A DNA stretch of 64,000 nucleotides, from sequence record PZ452579.1. One strand, 5' to 3'. The stretch comes from a phage. Under the pieces are notes generated by a model, which was given only the letters and a program-made list of their open reading frames with translations, was not told the DNA's origin and did no database searches. The translations under genes and the position numbers were made by a program. Below are positions 4,331-22,879 of the stretch, in pieces (the first letter of the stretch is position 1; each line of letters starts with the position of its first letter).

Positions 4331-4801
4331 TTAATCATGTTTCCACACCCCATCGGTATTTGACCAAAGTCTCTGATTATCTGATCCTCGCCACAGTTTT
4401 TTGGTCGGAAGATTTTTCTCATACTTCCCATCAATAATAACATCAACATATTTAAGCATTTCTAGTTGTTTAATATCTTCAAACTTATATCCTGTCCACA
4501 ACCAAATGCTTTTATTGGGATAAAGATTTTTTACTGTTTGAACAATGCAATGAATGACGTCTCGATTGTCAGGATAGAGAGGGTCTCCTCCGGTTATAGT
4601 CAATCCTTCTATATAATCATTATTCAAATATTCAATCAATTGTTCTAGTGTTTCACCGGTGAATGGAATACCATTTCTAGCATTCCATGTTGATTTATTA
4701 TAACACCCTTCGCATTTATGCAAACAACCTGTAACGAAAAGAACGACCCTGCAACCAGGGCCATTCACAAAATCGCAAGGATAAAATCTATCATAATTCA
4801 T
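4331..4801 (-). CDS. nrdG: anaerobic ribonucleotide reductase activating protein (radical SAM)
   Basis: CxxxCxxC motif (CLHKCEGC) near N-terminus; 156 aa; directly downstream of nrdD with 4-nt overlap. Confidence 0.9.
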   Translation of the reverse strand: MNYDRFYPCDFVNGPGCRVVLFVTGCLHKCEGCYNKSTWNARNGIPFTGETLEQLIEYLNNDYIEGLTITGGDPLYPDNRDVIHCIVQTVKNLYPNKSIWLWTGYKFEDIKQLEMLKYVDVIIDGKYEKNLPTKKLWRGSDNQRLWSNTDGVWKHD

Positions 4802-6615
4802 TGATGCTTAACCCTATGCATGATTTCTTTATTTTTACCGAGATTAAATCCGCGTTCGTTCGGATTTCCCAAATAACCGCATGTTCTTCTTATGGTGTTC
4901 ATCTTTTTAGGATCAGTTTCTCCGCAAACTGAACAAACAAATCCGTTTTCAGTAGGAGTCATTTCATGGGTACTTCCACATGTAAAACATTTATCTACCG
5001 GCATGTTAACACCAAAATAATCTAAATGTTGTGCAGCATAATCCCATACGGCCTCAAGACCTTTTAAGTTATTTTTCATATCGGGAAGTTCAACATAAGA
5101 AATGTGACCGCCGGTCGCAATGAAATGATATGGTGCTTCACGAGAAATCTTTTCAAACGGAGTAATATTTTCTTCTACTGAAACATGGAAACTGTTAGTG
5201 TACCAGCCTTTATCGGTAACATCCTTTACACTTCCATATTTTTCTGTATCGAGTTTACAGAAGCGATAACAAAGGTTTTCAGCAGGAGTCGAATATAAAC
5301 TAAAAGCAAATCCAGTTCTTTCAGTCCACTGTTTAAGATGAGCATTCATTTTAGTTAAAATTTCTCGTCCAATATCACGTCCGACAAGAATATTCAATTC
5401 GTGAATACCAATGTATCCCAAAGACACTGAACTTCTACCGTTTTTAAATAACTCAATTATGTCGTCATCAGGTTTAAGACGGACCCCGAATGCACCTTCT
5501 TGGTAAAGAATAGGAGCAACAGTAGCTTTAACTCCTTTTAGGGAACTAATTCTACACATCAAAGCTTCAAAACACAAATCCATTCGTTCATTGAATAATT
5601 CAACAAATTTCTGTTCATTGAACTGTGTTCCAATATAAGAATCTAACGCGATGCGAGGAAGATTCAGTGTTACAACACCAAGATTATTACGTCCATCAAG
5701 AATTTCATTACCAGTCGAATCTTTCCATACGCTCAAGAAACTACGGCAACCCATTGGAGAAACAGGAACAGATGAACCAGTGATAGCTTTATTGTTCTTA
5801 GCTGAAATAATATCAGGATACATTCTTTTGCTTGCGCACTCTAGAGCAAGCTGTTTAATATCATAGTTCGGATCATCTTTATAAAGATTAACACCTTCTT
5901 CAACAAACATAACAAGTTTAGGAAAAATAGGAGTTATTCCATCACGACCAAGACCTTTAACACGATTTTTCAGAATTGCTTTCTGAATCATTCGTTCAGT
6001 CCAGTCAGTTCCCGTACCAAATGTAATTGTTACAAAAGGAGTCTGTCCGTTTGAACTAAAGAGAGTATTTACTTCATATTCATAAGCTTGGAATGCATCG
6101 TATACGTCTTTTTCTGTTTTAGATTGAGCATAATTCAACGTATCAGCGATTTGCCATTTTTCTGCATCCTCAATATGTTTTGCATAGGTGCGTTTAACAT
6201 AAGGAGAAAGTACTTTATCTACATTAGCAAAAGTCGTTCCGCCGTATTGGTGAGAAGCAACCTGTGCAGTAATTTGTGCCATAATTGCAGTAGCAACACC
6301 AATCGATTTAGGCGTTTCAATCTGCGCATTACCTAGCTTAAATCCGTTTTCAAGCATTCCTTTTAAATCTACTAAACAGCAATTAGTAAATGGAAGAGCA
6401 GGGGAATAATCAATATCATGGAAATGGATAATTCCGCTTTCATGCGCTTTCATAATAAAAGACGGGACCATATTTTTGGCAATGTGTTTAGACACAATAC
6501 CAGCCATAAGGTCCCGTTGAGTTGGAAAAACACGAGAATCTTTATTAGCATTCTCGTTTAAAAGGTCTTTATTAGTTTTATGAATCAATCCTTCAATTTC
6601 TTTTTCAATTGTCAT
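4798..6615 (-). CDS. nrdD: anaerobic ribonucleoside-triphosphate reductase
   Basis: 605 aa; C-terminal glycyl radical motif RRTCGYLG and CxxC...CxxC zinc site; uninterrupted ORF. Confidence 0.95.
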   Translation of the reverse strand: MTIEKEIEGLIHKTNKDLLNENANKDSRVFPTQRDLMAGIVSKHIAKNMVPSFIMKAHESGIIHFHDIDYSPALPFTNCCLVDLKGMLENGFKLGNAQIETPKSIGVATAIMAQITAQVASHQYGGTTFANVDKVLSPYVKRTYAKHIEDAEKWQIADTLNYAQSKTEKDVYDAFQAYEYEVNTLFSSNGQTPFVTITFGTGTDWTERMIQKAILKNRVKGLGRDGITPIFPKLVMFVEEGVNLYKDDPNYDIKQLALECASKRMYPDIISAKNNKAITGSSVPVSPMGCRSFLSVWKDSTGNEILDGRNNLGVVTLNLPRIALDSYIGTQFNEQKFVELFNERMDLCFEALMCRISSLKGVKATVAPILYQEGAFGVRLKPDDDIIELFKNGRSSVSLGYIGIHELNILVGRDIGREILTKMNAHLKQWTERTGFAFSLYSTPAENLCYRFCKLDTEKYGSVKDVTDKGWYTNSFHVSVEENITPFEKISREAPYHFIATGGHISYVELPDMKNNLKGLEAVWDYAAQHLDYFGVNMPVDKCFTCGSTHEMTPTENGFVCSVCGETDPKKMNTIRRTCGYLGNPNERGFNLGKNKEIMHRVKHQ

Positions 6616-7423: not shown

Positions 7424-7759
7424 TTAACCGCGGAGCTTATTGAGCTCTTCATAATCAACCCAGGATTCTAGCCCAGATGGCAAATCAGATTCAACATTCC
7501 ACAGAAGCTCTTCGATGGCTTGTAGGCGATTATATTCTTCAACAGTAATAGTAACCATTGTTTCAGGCTTTTTAACCATCATGTCATTCATCAGAATGTA
7601 CAGGTCTTCACAAACAGCTGGGTCGTCCCATGTCCATATTTCAGCATCTCTAACCAATGAAGTCGGAATCGAATTTAAAACTTCAAGCTTAGTAGGAGCG
7701 TCAGGGCCGAGAAGAGTTGCTACAAATTTATATGCTTTGGCGAAATCAATATTGTTCAT
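7424..7759 (-). CDS. hypothetical acidic protein (111 aa)
   Basis: ORF; ATGA overlap with nrdC stop. Confidence 0.5.
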   Translation of the reverse strand: MNNIDFAKAYKFVATLLGPDAPTKLEVLNSIPTSLVRDAEIWTWDDPAVCEDLYILMNDMMVKKPETMVTITVEEYNRLQAIEELLWNVESDLPSGLESWVDYEELNKLRG

Positions 7760-8019
7760 TTAAAATATTCTCGCAGTTGGTCAAATCCACCAATGTGACT
7801 TCCGTCAGGAGCAAACACTTGAGGCATAGTCAATCCGACTTGTGATTCACGTCCAAGCTTAACCAGAAGCTCAGCAATTTTCTCATCATCAAAAACACCT
7901 TTTTCTGGCATAACATTAATGAATTCGAATGGCTGTTTCTTAACAGTCAGCAATCGTTTCGCATTATCACAGAAAACGCAACGGTGAATAGTAGAGTCAT
8001 ACCCGTACACTTTAAACAT
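7756..8019 (-). CDS. nrdC: thioredoxin/glutaredoxin NrdC
   Basis: 87 aa from MFKVYGYDSTIHRCVFCDNAKRLL...; CxxC redox motif; matches recalled T4 NrdC; SD AAGGA. Confidence 0.85.
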   Translation of the reverse strand: MFKVYGYDSTIHRCVFCDNAKRLLTVKKQPFEFINVMPEKGVFDDEKIAELLVKLGRESQVGLTMPQVFAPDGSHIGGFDQLREYFK

Positions 8020-8425
8020 TATTTTTCCTTTCATCGATTAAATATGCAACACCAAATACAATACATGTAATAAAACCTGTTATACAGATAGAAACCAACA
8101 ACACTGTACCAAAGAACCAAATCAGGTTATCTTTAGTAGTTTGTTTGATATCCATCTCACGAATTTCTATAGCTATCGTATCACCTTTATTCAGAAGCGT
8201 ATAAAACGACGGTGATACATGCCTGTCAAAAACACGACCTTGTTCATCTTTATAAACTGCAATAAATTCTAATTTAGAATATTTTCCTGTAGATTGACCT
8301 GAAATTAATTCCACCACCTCCACAGGAATTACTTTAGTTTCCATGTAAGTATTCTGGCTGTTCCAAATGAATGGAATGATGGCAAAAACTAAAGCTGCAA
8401 TAAAACAACGAAGGCTATATCTCAT
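8012..8425 (-). CDS. membrane protein (137 aa, N- and C-terminal TM segments)
   Basis: Hydrophobic segments at both ends. Confidence 0.55.
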   Translation of the reverse strand: MRYSLRCFIAALVFAIIPFIWNSQNTYMETKVIPVEVVELISGQSTGKYSKLEFIAVYKDEQGRVFDRHVSPSFYTLLNKGDTIAIEIREMDIKQTTKDNLIWFFGTVLLVSICITGFITCIVFGVAYLIDERKNNV

Positions 8426-8730
8426 TATAATGTTCTCTCAAATTTGTGGAAGCATTTACGGCATTTCAATTTCAAGTTATCAGTGGTCCAGTTAACCAGT
8501 TGGACTTGGATAGTTCCACATTCCGGGCATGGATGTTTTGCTGCCGATTTGGCAGCATTTTCACGTCGTTCAACCATTTTCATGATTTCGTTCCATGCCG
8601 GAGGAACGAACTCTTCTTCACCGTGGATTTTATCTCGCTGAACAAATTCAATCTTTGAACTATCGTCAATAAACTTAACCAAGCGGTGATTAGTGCTCAT
8701 ATCAATATCCTCTAAAAGACGTAGTTTCAT
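8425..8730 (-). CDS. zinc-ribbon protein (101 aa)
   Basis: C-terminal CPEC-x17-CRKC motif. Confidence 0.55.
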   Translation of the reverse strand: MKLRLLEDIDMSTNHRLVKFIDDSSKIEFVQRDKIHGEEEFVPPAWNEIMKMVERRENAAKSAAKHPCPECGTIQVQLVNWTTDNLKLKCRKCFHKFERTL

Positions 8731-9680
8731 TATAACACCTCAATGGCATTTCGTAAACCATCCGCTTTCGCATTCAGAGCTTTTAACGATTTAGTCTGTT
8801 CTGCAATCTGGGCTTCGACTTCTTTCAGACGAGATTTGAGATATTCGCGTTCTTCTCTTAAGTTATCAACTTTTTCTACTTTAGGTTCTTTAATAGGCTT
8901 AGGCTTAAACACATTAGGGTTCTTCAGTTTAATTTGAATTCGAGAACTGAATAACATTGAACCGTTATCTTCGATTTCGTCAAACATTTCAACAACATCC
9001 ATAGTCTGTAACATCATGCGAAGTTTATAAGACAACGAACGAACGGTTTTGTTGCGCTTATTAATTTCTTCGGCTTTCATGGTACCGAGATTACGTGAGT
9101 AGTAATAAGGAACCTGGATATCAATTGATAATGATGCGTTACCATTACCGGTTGGTTTGAATACTGCAGTAACCCAATCTTTAACATGAACTTTATTTGT
9201 ACGACCATCACCGCCTGTGAATAATTTACGAGAATGTTTAAAAAGCATATTCACTTGGTTATTGAATTCACAAGCAAATTTATCAGCAAATTTAGTTTCA
9301 GGAATGGTAGAGAACCAATCAGCCAAATGAGTCTTTTTAACATCATTAACAATAGTGAATTCAACCAAATCGGTTTTAGATGTCACAGATTTAATAAAGT
9401 TCGGCTTCATAAAGTTTTTGATGTTATCACGAGCCACAGTAGAAGATAATAAACGAGAACGTTTGAACCATTGAAGCAGTGTCCCTAATGAATGAGAATA
9501 CGCATTTTGAGTATCTTTACAGATATGATTTTCTTGACCTGTGTATGTACCAAAATCACGAAGAATACCACTTACTACATCTCGGTGTTGAACATCAAAT
9601 CCTAGTGCACCAGCAGCGCGCTGAGCATGAACGTTAGCGATAAGACCGGCAAAGTATTCAATGTAATGTGAACGTGTCAT
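8730..9680 (-). CDS. paralog family A (316 aa), C-terminal coiled coil
   Basis: Shares ILR(D/N)xG...E(N)H and R-x-x-x-K-NF motifs with 10734..11729; heptad-like C-terminus. Confidence 0.65.
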   Translation of the reverse strand: MTRSHYIEYFAGLIANVHAQRAAGALGFDVQHRDVVSGILRDFGTYTGQENHICKDTQNAYSHSLGTLLQWFKRSRLLSSTVARDNIKNFMKPNFIKSVTSKTDLVEFTIVNDVKKTHLADWFSTIPETKFADKFACEFNNQVNMLFKHSRKLFTGGDGRTNKVHVKDWVTAVFKPTGNGNASLSIDIQVPYYYSRNLGTMKAEEINKRNKTVRSLSYKLRMMLQTMDVVEMFDEIEDNGSMLFSSRIQIKLKNPNVFKPKPIKEPKVEKVDNLREEREYLKSRLKEVEAQIAEQTKSLKALNAKADGLRNAIEVL

Positions 9681-21186: not shown

Positions 21187-21452
21187 TAGTATTTTTCCTC
21201 AGGTCGAAATACTGCACGACACGCCCACATGCTGGCTTCTTTTAGATGTTGCTTAGCATACTTAAGAGCCTGCACTGCATCCATATCTTCTTTGGTTTGT
21301 TGCTCTGTTTCATTTTCTTTCAAGATATATGCTTCTTCAATCAGAGCATCAAACATCAATCCAAGACGGACTTCTGCATCTTTAATAGCGTTCACTTTAC
21401 CGATTTTATCGTCGGTATGTGGCTTGTAGCCTTTAATATCTTCAATCGACAT
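21186..21452 (-). CDS. hypothetical protein (about 88 aa; start uncertain)
   Basis: Internal ATG (MSIEDIKGYK...) chosen to avoid overlap. Confidence 0.4.
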   Translation of the reverse strand: MSIEDIKGYKPHTDDKIGKVNAIKDAEVRLGLMFDALIEEAYILKENETEQQTKEDMDAVQALKYAKQHLKEASMWACRAVFRPEEKY

Positions 21453-21666
21453 AAGGAATTTCCTCATCTGTGGCAAGGTCATATTCGACCAATTGGATAG
21501 GCTCATTAATACCATATCCACGTACAGTGATATCAGTTGTCGGATAGTTTCCAGTAATATCACCCGTTCTAAATGCTTCAATGAATGATTGCTCGCCTGA
21601 GCAACTAAACCAGGCGGCAAAACATTTTAAAACATCTTCAGACCCTTCTATAATCAATTTAGACAT
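21442..21666 (-). CDS. hypothetical protein (74 aa)
   Basis: ORF. Confidence 0.45.
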   Translation of the reverse strand: MSKLIIEGSEDVLKCFAAWFSCSGEQSFIEAFRTGDITGNYPTTDITVRGYGINEPIQLVEYDLATDEEIPYVD

Positions 21667-22028
21667 TATAGACTCTCAGTAAAGGTACGAGCGATAACGT
21701 CGCGCTGCTGTTCTGGAGTCAGAGAGTTAAAGCGAACTGCATAACCGGATACACGGATGGTCAGCTGCGGATATTTTTCCGGATGCTTAACTGCATCTTC
21801 CAGAGTTTCACGACGCAGAACGTTAACGTTCAGATGTTGACCACCTTCAATTTTAACTTTAGGTTGATGTTCAATTTCAATTTCACGGGCATTCAAACCG
21901 TAGAAAATTTCCGGGTCTACAATAGCGTCTTCTTTAAAAGTCTTAGAGACAATAATCCGGGCTTGAGTGCCGTCTTCAAAATAAATAGTGCCTTTATGTG
22001 CACCTTCAAGAATTTGATATGCTTTCAT
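21666..22028 (-). CDS. autonomous glycyl radical cofactor (GrcA/YfiD-like)
   Basis: C-terminal ...[33 protein letters not shown] glycyl radical motif; 3' half E. coli-like in codon usage and GC. Confidence 0.85.
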
Positions 22029-22034
22029 ATAACC

Positions 22035-22232
22035 TCAATTAGAAAATAAATTTATCCAAGTTTTTTCTTTAATCAAAAATGGGTCGGAATTAAACGCCAT
22101 TAAACTTTGAGTGATTAATCCCTTAAATGGCCCATCAATAAATTCCATTTTGAAATGCGGAATACTAGTCATCAACCGTGCATTAGGAGCAGTACAAAGA
22201 ACTTGCTGCCCTGCGAACGGACCTTTAGTCAA
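22035..22232 (-). CDS. hypothetical ORF (65 aa)
   Basis: ORF only; no clear SD. Confidence 0.25.
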   Translation of the reverse strand: MTKGPFAGQQVLCTAPNARLMTSIPHFKMEFIDGPFKGLITQSLMAFNSDPFLIKEKTWINLFSN

Positions 22233-22339: not shown

Positions 22340-22879
22340 TCATTGCATTCCAATCACAAAAAATTGAGGACGAGCATTACCGCCGATGCAATATTTGCTT
22401 TTGCAGCAGTGCTGTAATGTTTTAATGTGGACGTTGTAAATCTTATCCATATCAGGAGCTTTAATAGGCTCGTCAATTATATACAGAATACGAGAAAGCG
22501 TTAATCCACGGAATTTAGAACCTTCATTGCCAATAAAACTACGAACAGAATCAGTAAATAAACGGAATCGAATATCATCGCTAGAATAACGAGAAAATTC
22601 TTTTTCAATGTTGCCAGCAGAAATTTTAGCATAAGCTGAAGTATTAGAAAGAACAATAACTGTTCCGCCATCATACAACCAATTAGCAGCAAAGTTAGTC
22701 ACAGCAATTGATTTACCGGATTGACGTCCACCGTCTAAACGAAGTGTACAGTACTGTTTGAGTACGTCTTCAAACGGTGGGATATAACCATTCTTACAAA
22801 TTTCTTCTACTCTAGCATCAGAATGGTGTGTAAAAGCATTCATCAGGGATAGATAAGGACCAGTTAAAAATGTTCTCAT
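22340..22879 (-). CDS. P-loop-containing protein (GGRQSGKS)
   Basis: Walker-A-like motif; 179 aa; weak SD. Confidence 0.5.
   Translation of the reverse strand: MRTFLTGPYLSLMNAFTHHSDARVEEICKNGYIPPFEDVLKQYCTLRLDGGRQSGKSIAVTNFAANWLYDGGTVIVLSNTSAYAKISAGNIEKEFSRYSSDDIRFRLFTDSVRSFIGNEGSKFRGLTLSRILYIIDEPIKAPDMDKIYNVHIKTLQHCCKSKYCIGGNARPQFFVIGMQ

Follow-up and report, generated by a model that had tools for sequence, protein, structure and literature searches.

A host-derived patch inside vs.6, the glycyl radical cofactor gene of an RB69-like T-even phage

The gene vs.6 was analyzed in a 64,000-nt stretch of phage DNA (sequence record PZ452579.1; the whole stretch is referred to below as the window). 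It is the orthologue of the T4 gene encoding Y06I, and its bacterial counterpart is grcA (yfiD), which encodes the autonomous glycyl radical cofactor GrcA of Escherichia coli. The vs.6 gene of the window is a mosaic of phage-type DNA and of a tract nearly identical to grcA; the donor of this tract is E. coli, the transfer went from host to phage, and a comparable patch, derived from Klebsiella pneumoniae, recurs independently in Klebsiella phages. Very probably, the tract was overwritten in an existing phage gene by gene conversion from the chromosomal grcA of the host. The tract is an internal host-derived patch and not a replaced 3′ end of the gene.

In a codon alignment with E. coli grcA, gene nt 1-178 of vs.6 are identical at 89/178 positions, nt 179-353 at 173/175 (98.9%), and the last bases at 4/7. 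Within the middle tract, 57 successive codons differ from those of the host gene at just two sites, both synonymous. The maximum chi-square breakpoint falls at gene nt 179 (chi2 = 104, Fisher p = 1.8e-27). The composition changes as well, since the GC content is 0.36 in nt 1-178 and 0.48 in nt 179-353 (0.374 in the whole window), and the GC content of third codon positions (GC3) rises from 0.25 (nt 1-180) to 0.38 (nt 181-360). In blastn searches of 5,426 complete E. coli genomes, only gene nt 133-363 aligned, always to grcA, and the 183-nt segment containing the patch (nt 181-363) was matched at 95-99% by every one of them (5,426/5,426).

The other edge of the tract lies shortly before the stop codon. 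In gene nt 181-363, vs.6 of phage RB16 and E. coli grcA are distinguished by 31 sites, although the same 60 residues are encoded. The window agrees with E. coli at 27 of these sites (nt 189-351), has a private base at one, and agrees with RB16 at the three final ones (nt 354, 357, and 360), which are located beyond the patch. The use of phage KP15 or of Jiaodavirus as the reference gave the same pattern (EEEE...Eppp), i.e., a succession of E. coli bases closed by phage bases. The gene terminates with ACA GAG AGT CTA TAA in RB16 and KP15 as it does in the window, and the E. coli gene ends in GAA AGC CTG TAA; directly 5′ of the first junction, T4-like phages have CAA CCT ACA GTT AAA ATT/GTT, whereas E. 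coli has AAA CCA GAA GTT CGC GTT. Hence, two breakpoints enclose a donor-type tract flanked by recipient-type sequence, and this phage/E. coli/phage pattern argues for gene conversion into an existing phage homologue rather than for a captured 3′ end.

The similarity of the 5′ half tracks phage taxonomy. Its nucleotide identity is 95-99% within Mosigvirus, 87-89% with Tequatrovirus, and 73-78% with Jiaodavirus, Karamvirus, and Kanagawavirus (T4-like phages of Klebsiella, Enterobacter, and Cronobacter). The encoded protein is still homologous to the N-terminus of GrcA (35% identity over 40 aa, E = 3e-6), and the N-terminal region of GrcA was described as disordered (PMC13450708), both of which would fit a recent capture of the whole host grcA followed by very fast divergence of its N-terminal half. 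We regard such a capture as very unlikely, since a 5′ half of the same length and with the same indels is common to the three last-named genera, whose 3′ halves are not E. coli-like, and since bacterial N-termini are conserved (85-99% nucleotide identity within Enterobacteriaceae). Moreover, the identity steps from 50% to 99% within a few bases, and the last three codons, beyond the patch, are of phage type.

The specificity of the match was assessed with a host panel of 81 bacterial grcA genes, compared over the last 60 codons (180 nt). The window is identical to E. coli at 175 of these positions, to Escherichia sp. MOD1 (cryptic clade) at 173, to Citrobacter amalonaticus at 162, and to the rest at ≤161. 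Phage homologues outside the T-evens agree with the window at far fewer positions (RB16 type, 151/180; Jiaodavirus, 152/180; others, about 125-149/180). The longest stretch shared by phage and host without a mismatch measures 71-175 nt in the sampled T-evens (119 nt in the window) and 17-38 nt in most other phages. The synonymous identity is also donor-specific, as the synonymous divergence (dS) of the tract from E. coli is 0.043 vs 0.36-1.0 between enterobacterial genera. The patch is the sole host-identical DNA in the window; in the remaining ~63.5 kb (positions 1-21600 and 22100-64000), no megablast match was found in the 5,426 E. coli genomes.

It might be argued that no recombination is needed, because the 3′ half is the most constrained part of the gene and selection of host-optimal codons in a highly expressed gene would lead to convergence. 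Indeed, the C-terminal 60 residues are 58-60/60 identical across many phage and bacterial genera, and throughout the T4-like phages the similarity of the 3′ half exceeds that of the 5′ half by about 8-10 points. Nevertheless, many bacteria of the panel encode 58-60 identical tail residues yet match the window at ≤162/180 nt; Citrobacter, with the same 60 residues, reaches 162/180, and Salmonella, in which two residues differ, ≤153/180. The tails encoded by RB16 and RB43 share 60/60 and 58/60 residues with E. coli but only 147-149/180 nt (RB16 149/180), with exact runs of ≤29 nt for the RB16 type. In addition, the window agrees with E. coli even at non-optimal or alternating codons (AAG, TAT, TTT, CGT/CGC, GTT/GTA), and Klebsiella phages follow K. 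pneumoniae codons. Protein or codon convergence is therefore extremely improbable, and it was rejected on the RB16/RB43 control and the host panel.

Concerning the direction of the transfer, E. coli grcA diverges from its relatives similarly in both halves (dS in the 5′ half/3′ half: 0.07/0.05 to Escherichia sp., 0.57/0.36 to Citrobacter, and 0.80/1.02 to Salmonella) and in accordance with taxonomy, so the host gene is native and the DNA moved from host to phage. Identity alone gives no direction, and the domain is found in phages of an abundant family, which would leave room for the opposite course, i.e., acquisition of the 3′ half of bacterial grcA from a phage. Its probability appears negligible given the equal, taxonomic divergence of both grcA halves, the host-like GC and GC3 of the patch, which are distinct from the phage background of 0.374, and the fact that the E. 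coli and K. pneumoniae grcA genes differ and each matches its own phages.

A first-pass annotation of the window had taken the open reading frame (ORF) at 21666-22028 for a GrcA/YfiD-like gene with a host-like 3′ half. The ORF is exact (minus strand, 120 codons), and its last ~60 residues, said there to carry the glycyl radical motif and to match E. coli GrcA, are 60/60 identical to it, RVSGYAV included. The reported rise in GC is real (0.36 vs 0.48), and the identity to E. coli is near-total (98.9%), which exceeds the suggested usage of E. coli-like codons. The proposed recombination with the host gene gained support: the boundary is highly significant, the patch has phage-type sequence on both sides, the tail is closer to the host (175/180) than to phage homologues outside the T-evens (≤152/180), and such recombination is the best explanation of the boundary. 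On the other hand, the host-like part corresponds to nt 179-353 and stops before the stop codon, the last three codons being phage-type. The T4 homologue mentioned there (Y06I) is encoded by a gene differing from vs.6 of the window at 26/363 nt, and the chimeric boundary, considered to be the novelty, does exist but is not peculiar to the window, as T4 and ~634 T-even genomes share the patch.

By blastn, the E. coli patch was identified in 634 phage records at an identity of at least 95%, and the next matches come at ≤85%. The reference genomes of T4, T2, RB69, and RB32 have it; in T4, 3/183 nt differ from E. coli, one of them being the R73H change. The occurrence in these references and in ~634 independent phage records, together with the in-frame position of the patch between phage-type sequences, makes an assembly chimera or host-DNA contamination of the present sequence barely conceivable, even though metagenome assemblers do mis-join at this place (e.g., OCHD01000040.1) and two contigs end inside the patch. 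Taken together, whole-gene capture, the phage-to-host direction, and an artefact in the window were each rejected on the basis of the distribution of the patch, the taxonomy of the 5′ half, the dS of grcA, and the phage-type 3′ end.

The contigs just mentioned deserve a separate comment. In OCHD01000040.1 (L183, locus 7717-9670), a Mosigvirus-like contig of 170.9 kb, the sequence passes from vs.6 directly into the E. coli chromosomal region downstream of grcA (eamB side), which makes up the last ~1.7 kb, and two further T-even contigs (L184 and L187) terminate inside the patch. Most likely, the assembler mis-joined or broke at the 175-nt phage-host repeat, although a real hybrid molecule is possible.

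Two Tequatroviruses, Salmonella phage pSe_SNUABM_01 (L181; tail 177/180 vs E. coli) and Yersinia phage PYps15T (L166), carry the E. coli-type patch and not that of the isolation host, and the patch may reflect the usual host of the lineage rather than the isolation host. A GrcA homologue is encoded in ~1,589 records of the phage database; it occurs, among others, in T5-like phages of Salmonella and E. coli (127 aa, 52-54% identical), in jumbo Klebsiella phages, and in Aeromonas and Vibrio phages. Neither in these ~1,589 records nor in 80 IMG/VR loci was a phage found with a full-length vs.6 that is >90% identical to a bacterial grcA. Two broken copies were also encountered: in Escherichia phage vB-Eco-KMB39 (H189, Tequatrovirus), vs.6 is in two pieces spanning 415 nt and annotated as two coding sequences, and in a Jiaodavirus-like locus (L109; IMG/VR 2974754850, 1501-1862), there is a frameshift in the 5′ half. 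They may be pseudogenes, insertions, or sequencing errors.

A second patch, of a different origin, was recognized in the Klebsiella phages. In vs.6 of pKp20 (Jiaodavirus), GC3 rises from 0.23 in the 5′ half to 0.60 in the 3′ half, the latter being identical at 96.0% to grcA of K. pneumoniae, at 92% to that of K. aerogenes, and at 86.7% to that of E. coli, while IMG/VR relatives of this phage match K. pneumoniae grcA without interruption over 140 and 146 nt. The junction is located at the same codon as in the T-evens (...AAA ATT/GTT followed by GAA GGC GGT...), and the 3′ end is again of phage type (ACA GAG GCA CTA TAA), with a 3′ patch edge varying slightly among relatives. The patch encodes the Klebsiella-type residues LLDAVEH, in contrast to LEDAVKH in E. 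coli and its phages. When the phage database was compared with the K. pneumoniae tail, 80 records matched at 95-99% and 58 at 90-95%, the next band being ≤88%, and among the matches listed, all those in the 90-99% bands were Klebsiella phages. Judging by these matches, a patch derived from K. pneumoniae is present in ~138 Klebsiella Jiaodavirus genomes and goes back to an independent event. With the E. coli patch in T-evens and the K. pneumoniae patch in Jiaodavirus, vs.6 has been overwritten from two host species.

A recent host patch was also looked for, and not seen, in Slopekvirus KP15 (145/180 vs K. pneumoniae), in T5-like phages (about 125-136/180 vs Salmonella or E. coli), and in Karamvirus and Kanagawavirus (about 135-144/180). 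In the GrcA homologue of an IMG/VR contig of ~91 kb (L104), the 3′ part has a 56-nt exact run with grcA of a Haemophilus metagenome-assembled genome, or ~74 nt with one mismatch; its relatives (L101-L106) are ~152-kb phages from human metagenomes. The run may represent a third, older host patch, but a shared AT-rich codon bias could explain it equally well. Another locus (L111) shows no compositional step and matches Yersinia at 164/180; it may consist of bacterial DNA within a contig classed as ‘viral’. The Klebsiella grcA sequences were supplied by two records filed in the plasmid collection, i.e., CP125156.1 (L176; K. pneumoniae ‘plasmid unnamed2’ of 5.37 Mb) and LR134122.1 (L177; K. aerogenes ‘plasmid 2’ of 568 kb), both of which are evidently chromosomal; in LR134122.1, the grcA coding sequence is annotated 60 nt shorter than usual, out of line with other grcA tails.

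We then considered whether the T-even patch goes back to one conversion or to many. Divergence was estimated for a sample of 6 Mosigvirus and 12 Tequatrovirus sequences. Between the two genera, dS is 0.454 for the 5′ half but 0.082 for the patch, compared with 0.06-0.07 within a genus, and the dS of 0.043 between the phage and E. coli patches is about half the phage-to-phage value. In the 5′ half, nine fixed differences separate the genera, whereas the 171-nt patch has none, and the window differs from T4 by 12 synonymous changes in the 5′ half vs two in the patch (Fisher p = 0.002). At all polymorphic patch sites, the majority phage base is the common E. coli allele. Furthermore, RB69 was reported to be unable to recombine with T4 (PMC6024577). 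The low patch dS, the E. coli consensus, and this barrier between RB69 and T4 favour repeated or separate conversions from the host, which thus seem likely, over one ancestral event.

A single ancient conversion in the ancestor shared by Tequatrovirus and Mosigvirus, followed by slow decay and without repeated exchange with the host, would require the fewest events. It would also account for the 5′ junction being identical, and the 3′ edge almost so, in both genera and for the phage-type GAG AGT codons that most members keep after the patch. We consider it rather unlikely, since it does not agree with a between-genus patch dS close to the within-genus one, with the contrasting numbers of fixed and synonymous differences in the two parts of the gene, or with the E. 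coli base being the consensus at every polymorphic patch site. Besides, the end of the K. pneumoniae patch varies among Jiaodavirus relatives, and the junction recurs independently in this genus, so a common junction need not mean a common event. Dhakavirus JS98 (L175; NC_010105, 57097-57604) was tried as an intermediate genus for dating the conversion and proved uninformative: it has vs.4, vs.5-like, vs.7, and vs.8 genes but lacks vs.6, the vs.5-like gene and vs.7 abutting each other.

Beyond repeated conversion, we put forward, as a tentative proposal in which belief and doubt nearly balance, that the glycyl-radical tract is in continuous concerted evolution with grcA of the main host of the lineage. 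The ~175 nt of homology would then act as a recombination trap, by which the virulent T-evens and Jiaodavirus, which degrade host DNA, would keep copying chromosomal DNA into their own genomes.

The following course of events can be proposed. T4-like phages would long have carried their own diverged grcA homologue, and the conserved half of this gene, ~83% similar to host grcA, would have allowed rare homeologous recombination with fragments of the host chromosome. In the T-even lineage, gene nt 179-353 would have been replaced by homologous gene conversion on a host grcA template, presumably by strand invasion (of the phage UvsX type) or break repair on fragments of host DNA. In T4, ~50 bp of homology suffice for recombination, and plasmid inserts that contain cytosine can serve as partners. 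The edges of the patch would lie where phage-host similarity is too low for recombination, i.e., 5′ of EGGQHLNV and in the last three codons, and the 3′ edge, additionally, where the translation start of vs.5 must be kept; the phage-type 3′ end probably carries ribosome-binding purines for vs.5, which would give it a role in ribosome binding. Once installed, ~175 nt of near-perfect homology would ease further conversion, the tract would evolve with the host gene and not with the phage genome, and re-conversion would presumably be ongoing. A benefit from host-type codons is possible.

The patch encodes the glycyl-radical domain of the protein. The Pfam Gly_radical domain was found at residues 60-101 (E = 2e-18), and the top structure match is PDB 6OWR, i.e., E. 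coli GrcA (E = 2e-42), and the PflB C-terminus comes next; the alignments cover residues 696-759 of PflB (1H16) and 27-127 of GrcA. With 120 aa and a stand-alone C-terminal glycyl-radical domain, the protein has the features of a small spare-part protein. It contains the radical-glycine motif IRVSGYAVR (family pattern RVSGY(A/T)V), in which Gly95, by analogy with the homologues described in the literature, would carry the radical.

Both the gene and its biochemical role are already known from T4 Y06I. T4 Y06I and E. coli YfiD are described as restoring O2-cleaved pyruvate formate-lyase (PFL) after activation by the PFL-activating enzyme, PFL-AE (Wagner 2001, in PMC8683613), and Y06I as being activated by the host PFL activase and serving host PflB rather than a phage reductase (PMC8683613). 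The protein of the window differs from Y06I in 7/120 residues, and on this analogy, the host PFL activase (PflA) would place the radical on Gly95, and the protein would dock onto O2-cleaved host PflB, substituting the lost C-terminal fragment and restoring the activity. The rescued PflB would keep the fermentative supply of acetyl-CoA, formate, and ATP going in micro-aerobic infected cells. The first-pass annotation had suggested that the gene complements the anaerobic module nrdD/nrdG, which holds in a loose sense at most; both genes are indeed present in the window, but the Y06I literature assigns the protein to host PflB and not to the phage reductase.

Several observations weigh against parts of the above interpretation and should be considered jointly. 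Concerning the exchange itself, we infer the conversion pathway from sequence comparison, and an RB16-like ancestor would have had the same 60 residues, so the patch may bring no advantage at the protein level and be a neutral scar. The evidence for more than one event is statistical and comes from 18-24 sequences: the Fisher test of fixed vs polymorphic sites gave p = 0.043, and the match of phage variants 192G, 282A, and 282T to Escherichia alleles (3/7 host variant states, p about 0.07) is only suggestive. One conversion followed by the spread of the patch from phage to phage is also possible. As for the protein, the NCBIfam model TIGR04365 (spare_glycyl) scored 159.1 bits over residues 18-120, below its equivalog cut-off of 170 bits, because the N-terminal region of vs.6 has diverged, and the role of this exact protein is predicted from the T4 orthologue, which is 93-94% identical. 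Finally, vs.6 is evidently dispensable in at least some settings, as JS98 does without it.

The identity of the gene is supported by its context. The window belongs to an RB69-like T-even phage of the genus Mosigvirus, and its vs.6 shares 98.3% nucleotide identity with RB69 vs.6, whose RefSeq annotation is ‘autonomous glycyl radical cofactor GrcA’; the T4 orthologue is likewise named GrcA by RefSeq. The order tk-vs-regB-vs.4-vs.5-vs.6-vs.7-vs.8-denV is that of RB69 and T4, and the order vs.7-vs.6-vs.5 is common to RB69, T4, RB32, and others. Its position between vs.7 and vs.5 and its N-terminal half (MKAYQILEG...) place the gene in the T4-like orthologous group. The coordinates of vs.6, its parts, and other features are presented in Table 1.

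Table 1. Features of the vs.6 region and related genes, with positions in the window
Feature	Coordinates	Strand	Basis or remark
vs.6 coding sequence, 120 aa	21666..22028	-	ORF call; RB69/T4 Y06I orthology; autonomous glycyl radical cofactor
Phage-type 5′ half, gene nt 1-178, residues 1-59	21851..22028	-	AT-rich, GC 0.36; anciently diverged homologue of the GrcA N-terminus
Host-derived patch, maximum, gene nt 179-353	21676..21850	-	173/175 vs E. coli grcA; encodes glycyl-radical domain EGGQHLNV...ARTFT
Host-derived patch, minimum, gene nt 189-351	21678..21840	-	E. coli-type sites
Phage-type 3′ end, codons GAG AGT CTA and stop TAA	21666..21675	-	Identical to RB16 and KP15
Gly95 codon GGT, RVSGYAV motif	21744..21746	-	Predicted radical site; corresponds to E. 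coli GrcA Gly102 and PflB Gly734
Shine-Dalgarno-like GAGG, four bases 5′ of vs.6 ATG	22033..22036	-	Consensus resemblance only; minus strand: ATTGAGGTTATATG
vs.5 ORF	21442..21666	-	Its ATG overlaps the vs.6 stop (TAATG)
nrdD	4798..6615		Present in the window
nrdG	4331..4801		Present in the window

In the vicinity of vs.6, the vs.8 homologue (22340..22879, minus strand) contains two 60-nt blocks, 22820-22879 and 22640-22699, that are 100% identical to T4, whereas the adjoining blocks show 77-93% identity and vs.7 about 40-80%. This block pattern suggests phage-phage mosaicism beside vs.6.

As regards the significance of these findings, T4, T2, RB69, and hundreds of their relatives destroy the host chromosome and have no other DNA in common with it, yet they carry a near-exact copy of ~175 nt of E. 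coli DNA. If conversion was repeated, vs.6 would provide a natural and quantifiable example of homologous recombination from a host to virulent phages, and a short sequence marker of the evolutionary host of a T4-like phage. In that case, the shared repeat could also lead to chimeric or broken metagenome contigs and mislead host-prediction and contamination filters. If concerted evolution is true, the patch would record the recent host species, and even the host allele, of a phage lineage, and it would be natural evidence that fragments of the host chromosome are routinely used as repair templates.

In a comparative paper of 2006, vs.6 was noted as a conserved Gly_radical ORF, and nothing more (PMC1524935). 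In the searchable literature, no description of the host-identical tract was found, and its mention in older subscription papers is possible. Among the known systems, the closest is Vs.6/Y06I of T4, which also has 120 aa, is encoded between vs.7 and vs.5 at 93% nucleotide identity, and includes the same host-type patch. Seven residues differ, six of them in the 5′ half (A10T, T21I, A35S, I36F, N46H, and K57T; codon 54 is also variable) and one in the patch (R73H, in T4), and the last codon is TTG in T4 and CTA in the window. With E. coli GrcA/YfiD (6OWR), vs.6 shares the C-terminal 60 residues, the patch at 173/175 nt, the RVSGYAV motif, and the presumed partners PflA and PflB. The N-terminal region, in contrast, is about 35% identical, with the phage protein 7 residues shorter and several indels, and vs.6 lies in a phage early/middle gene cluster, whereas the E. 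coli gene is under a host promoter.

The vs.6 genes of the Pseudotevenviruses RB16 and RB43 and of the Slopekvirus KP15 belong to the same family, encode an identical or nearly identical tail, and end with GAG AGT CTA TAA, but their glycyl-radical halves use phage-type codons (147-149/180 vs E. coli; for KP15, 145/180 vs K. pneumoniae), and thus they show what vs.6 looks like without a recent host patch. The Jiaodavirus genes (pKp20, Nispero, and the JD18 group) are built like that of the window, with a phage 5′ half, the same junction codon, a patch identical to the host, and a 3′ end of phage type; they differ in the donor, which is K. pneumoniae grcA (96-97%, exact runs of up to 146 nt, LLDAVEH).

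A wider parallel is offered by psbA and psbD of cyanophages, i.e., phage metabolic genes that swap segments with the host copy by homologous recombination, which results in mosaics with host-like GC patches. Those cases concern marine cyanomyoviruses and whole-gene homologues of similar divergence, whereas T-evens are virulent coliphages that contain hydroxymethylcytosine or arabinosyl-hydroxymethylcytosine and degrade host DNA, and in vs.6, just ~175 nt were exchanged in an otherwise unalignable gene. The vs.6 patch is a well-supported new instance of a known process, the intragenic exchange of DNA between a phage and its host.

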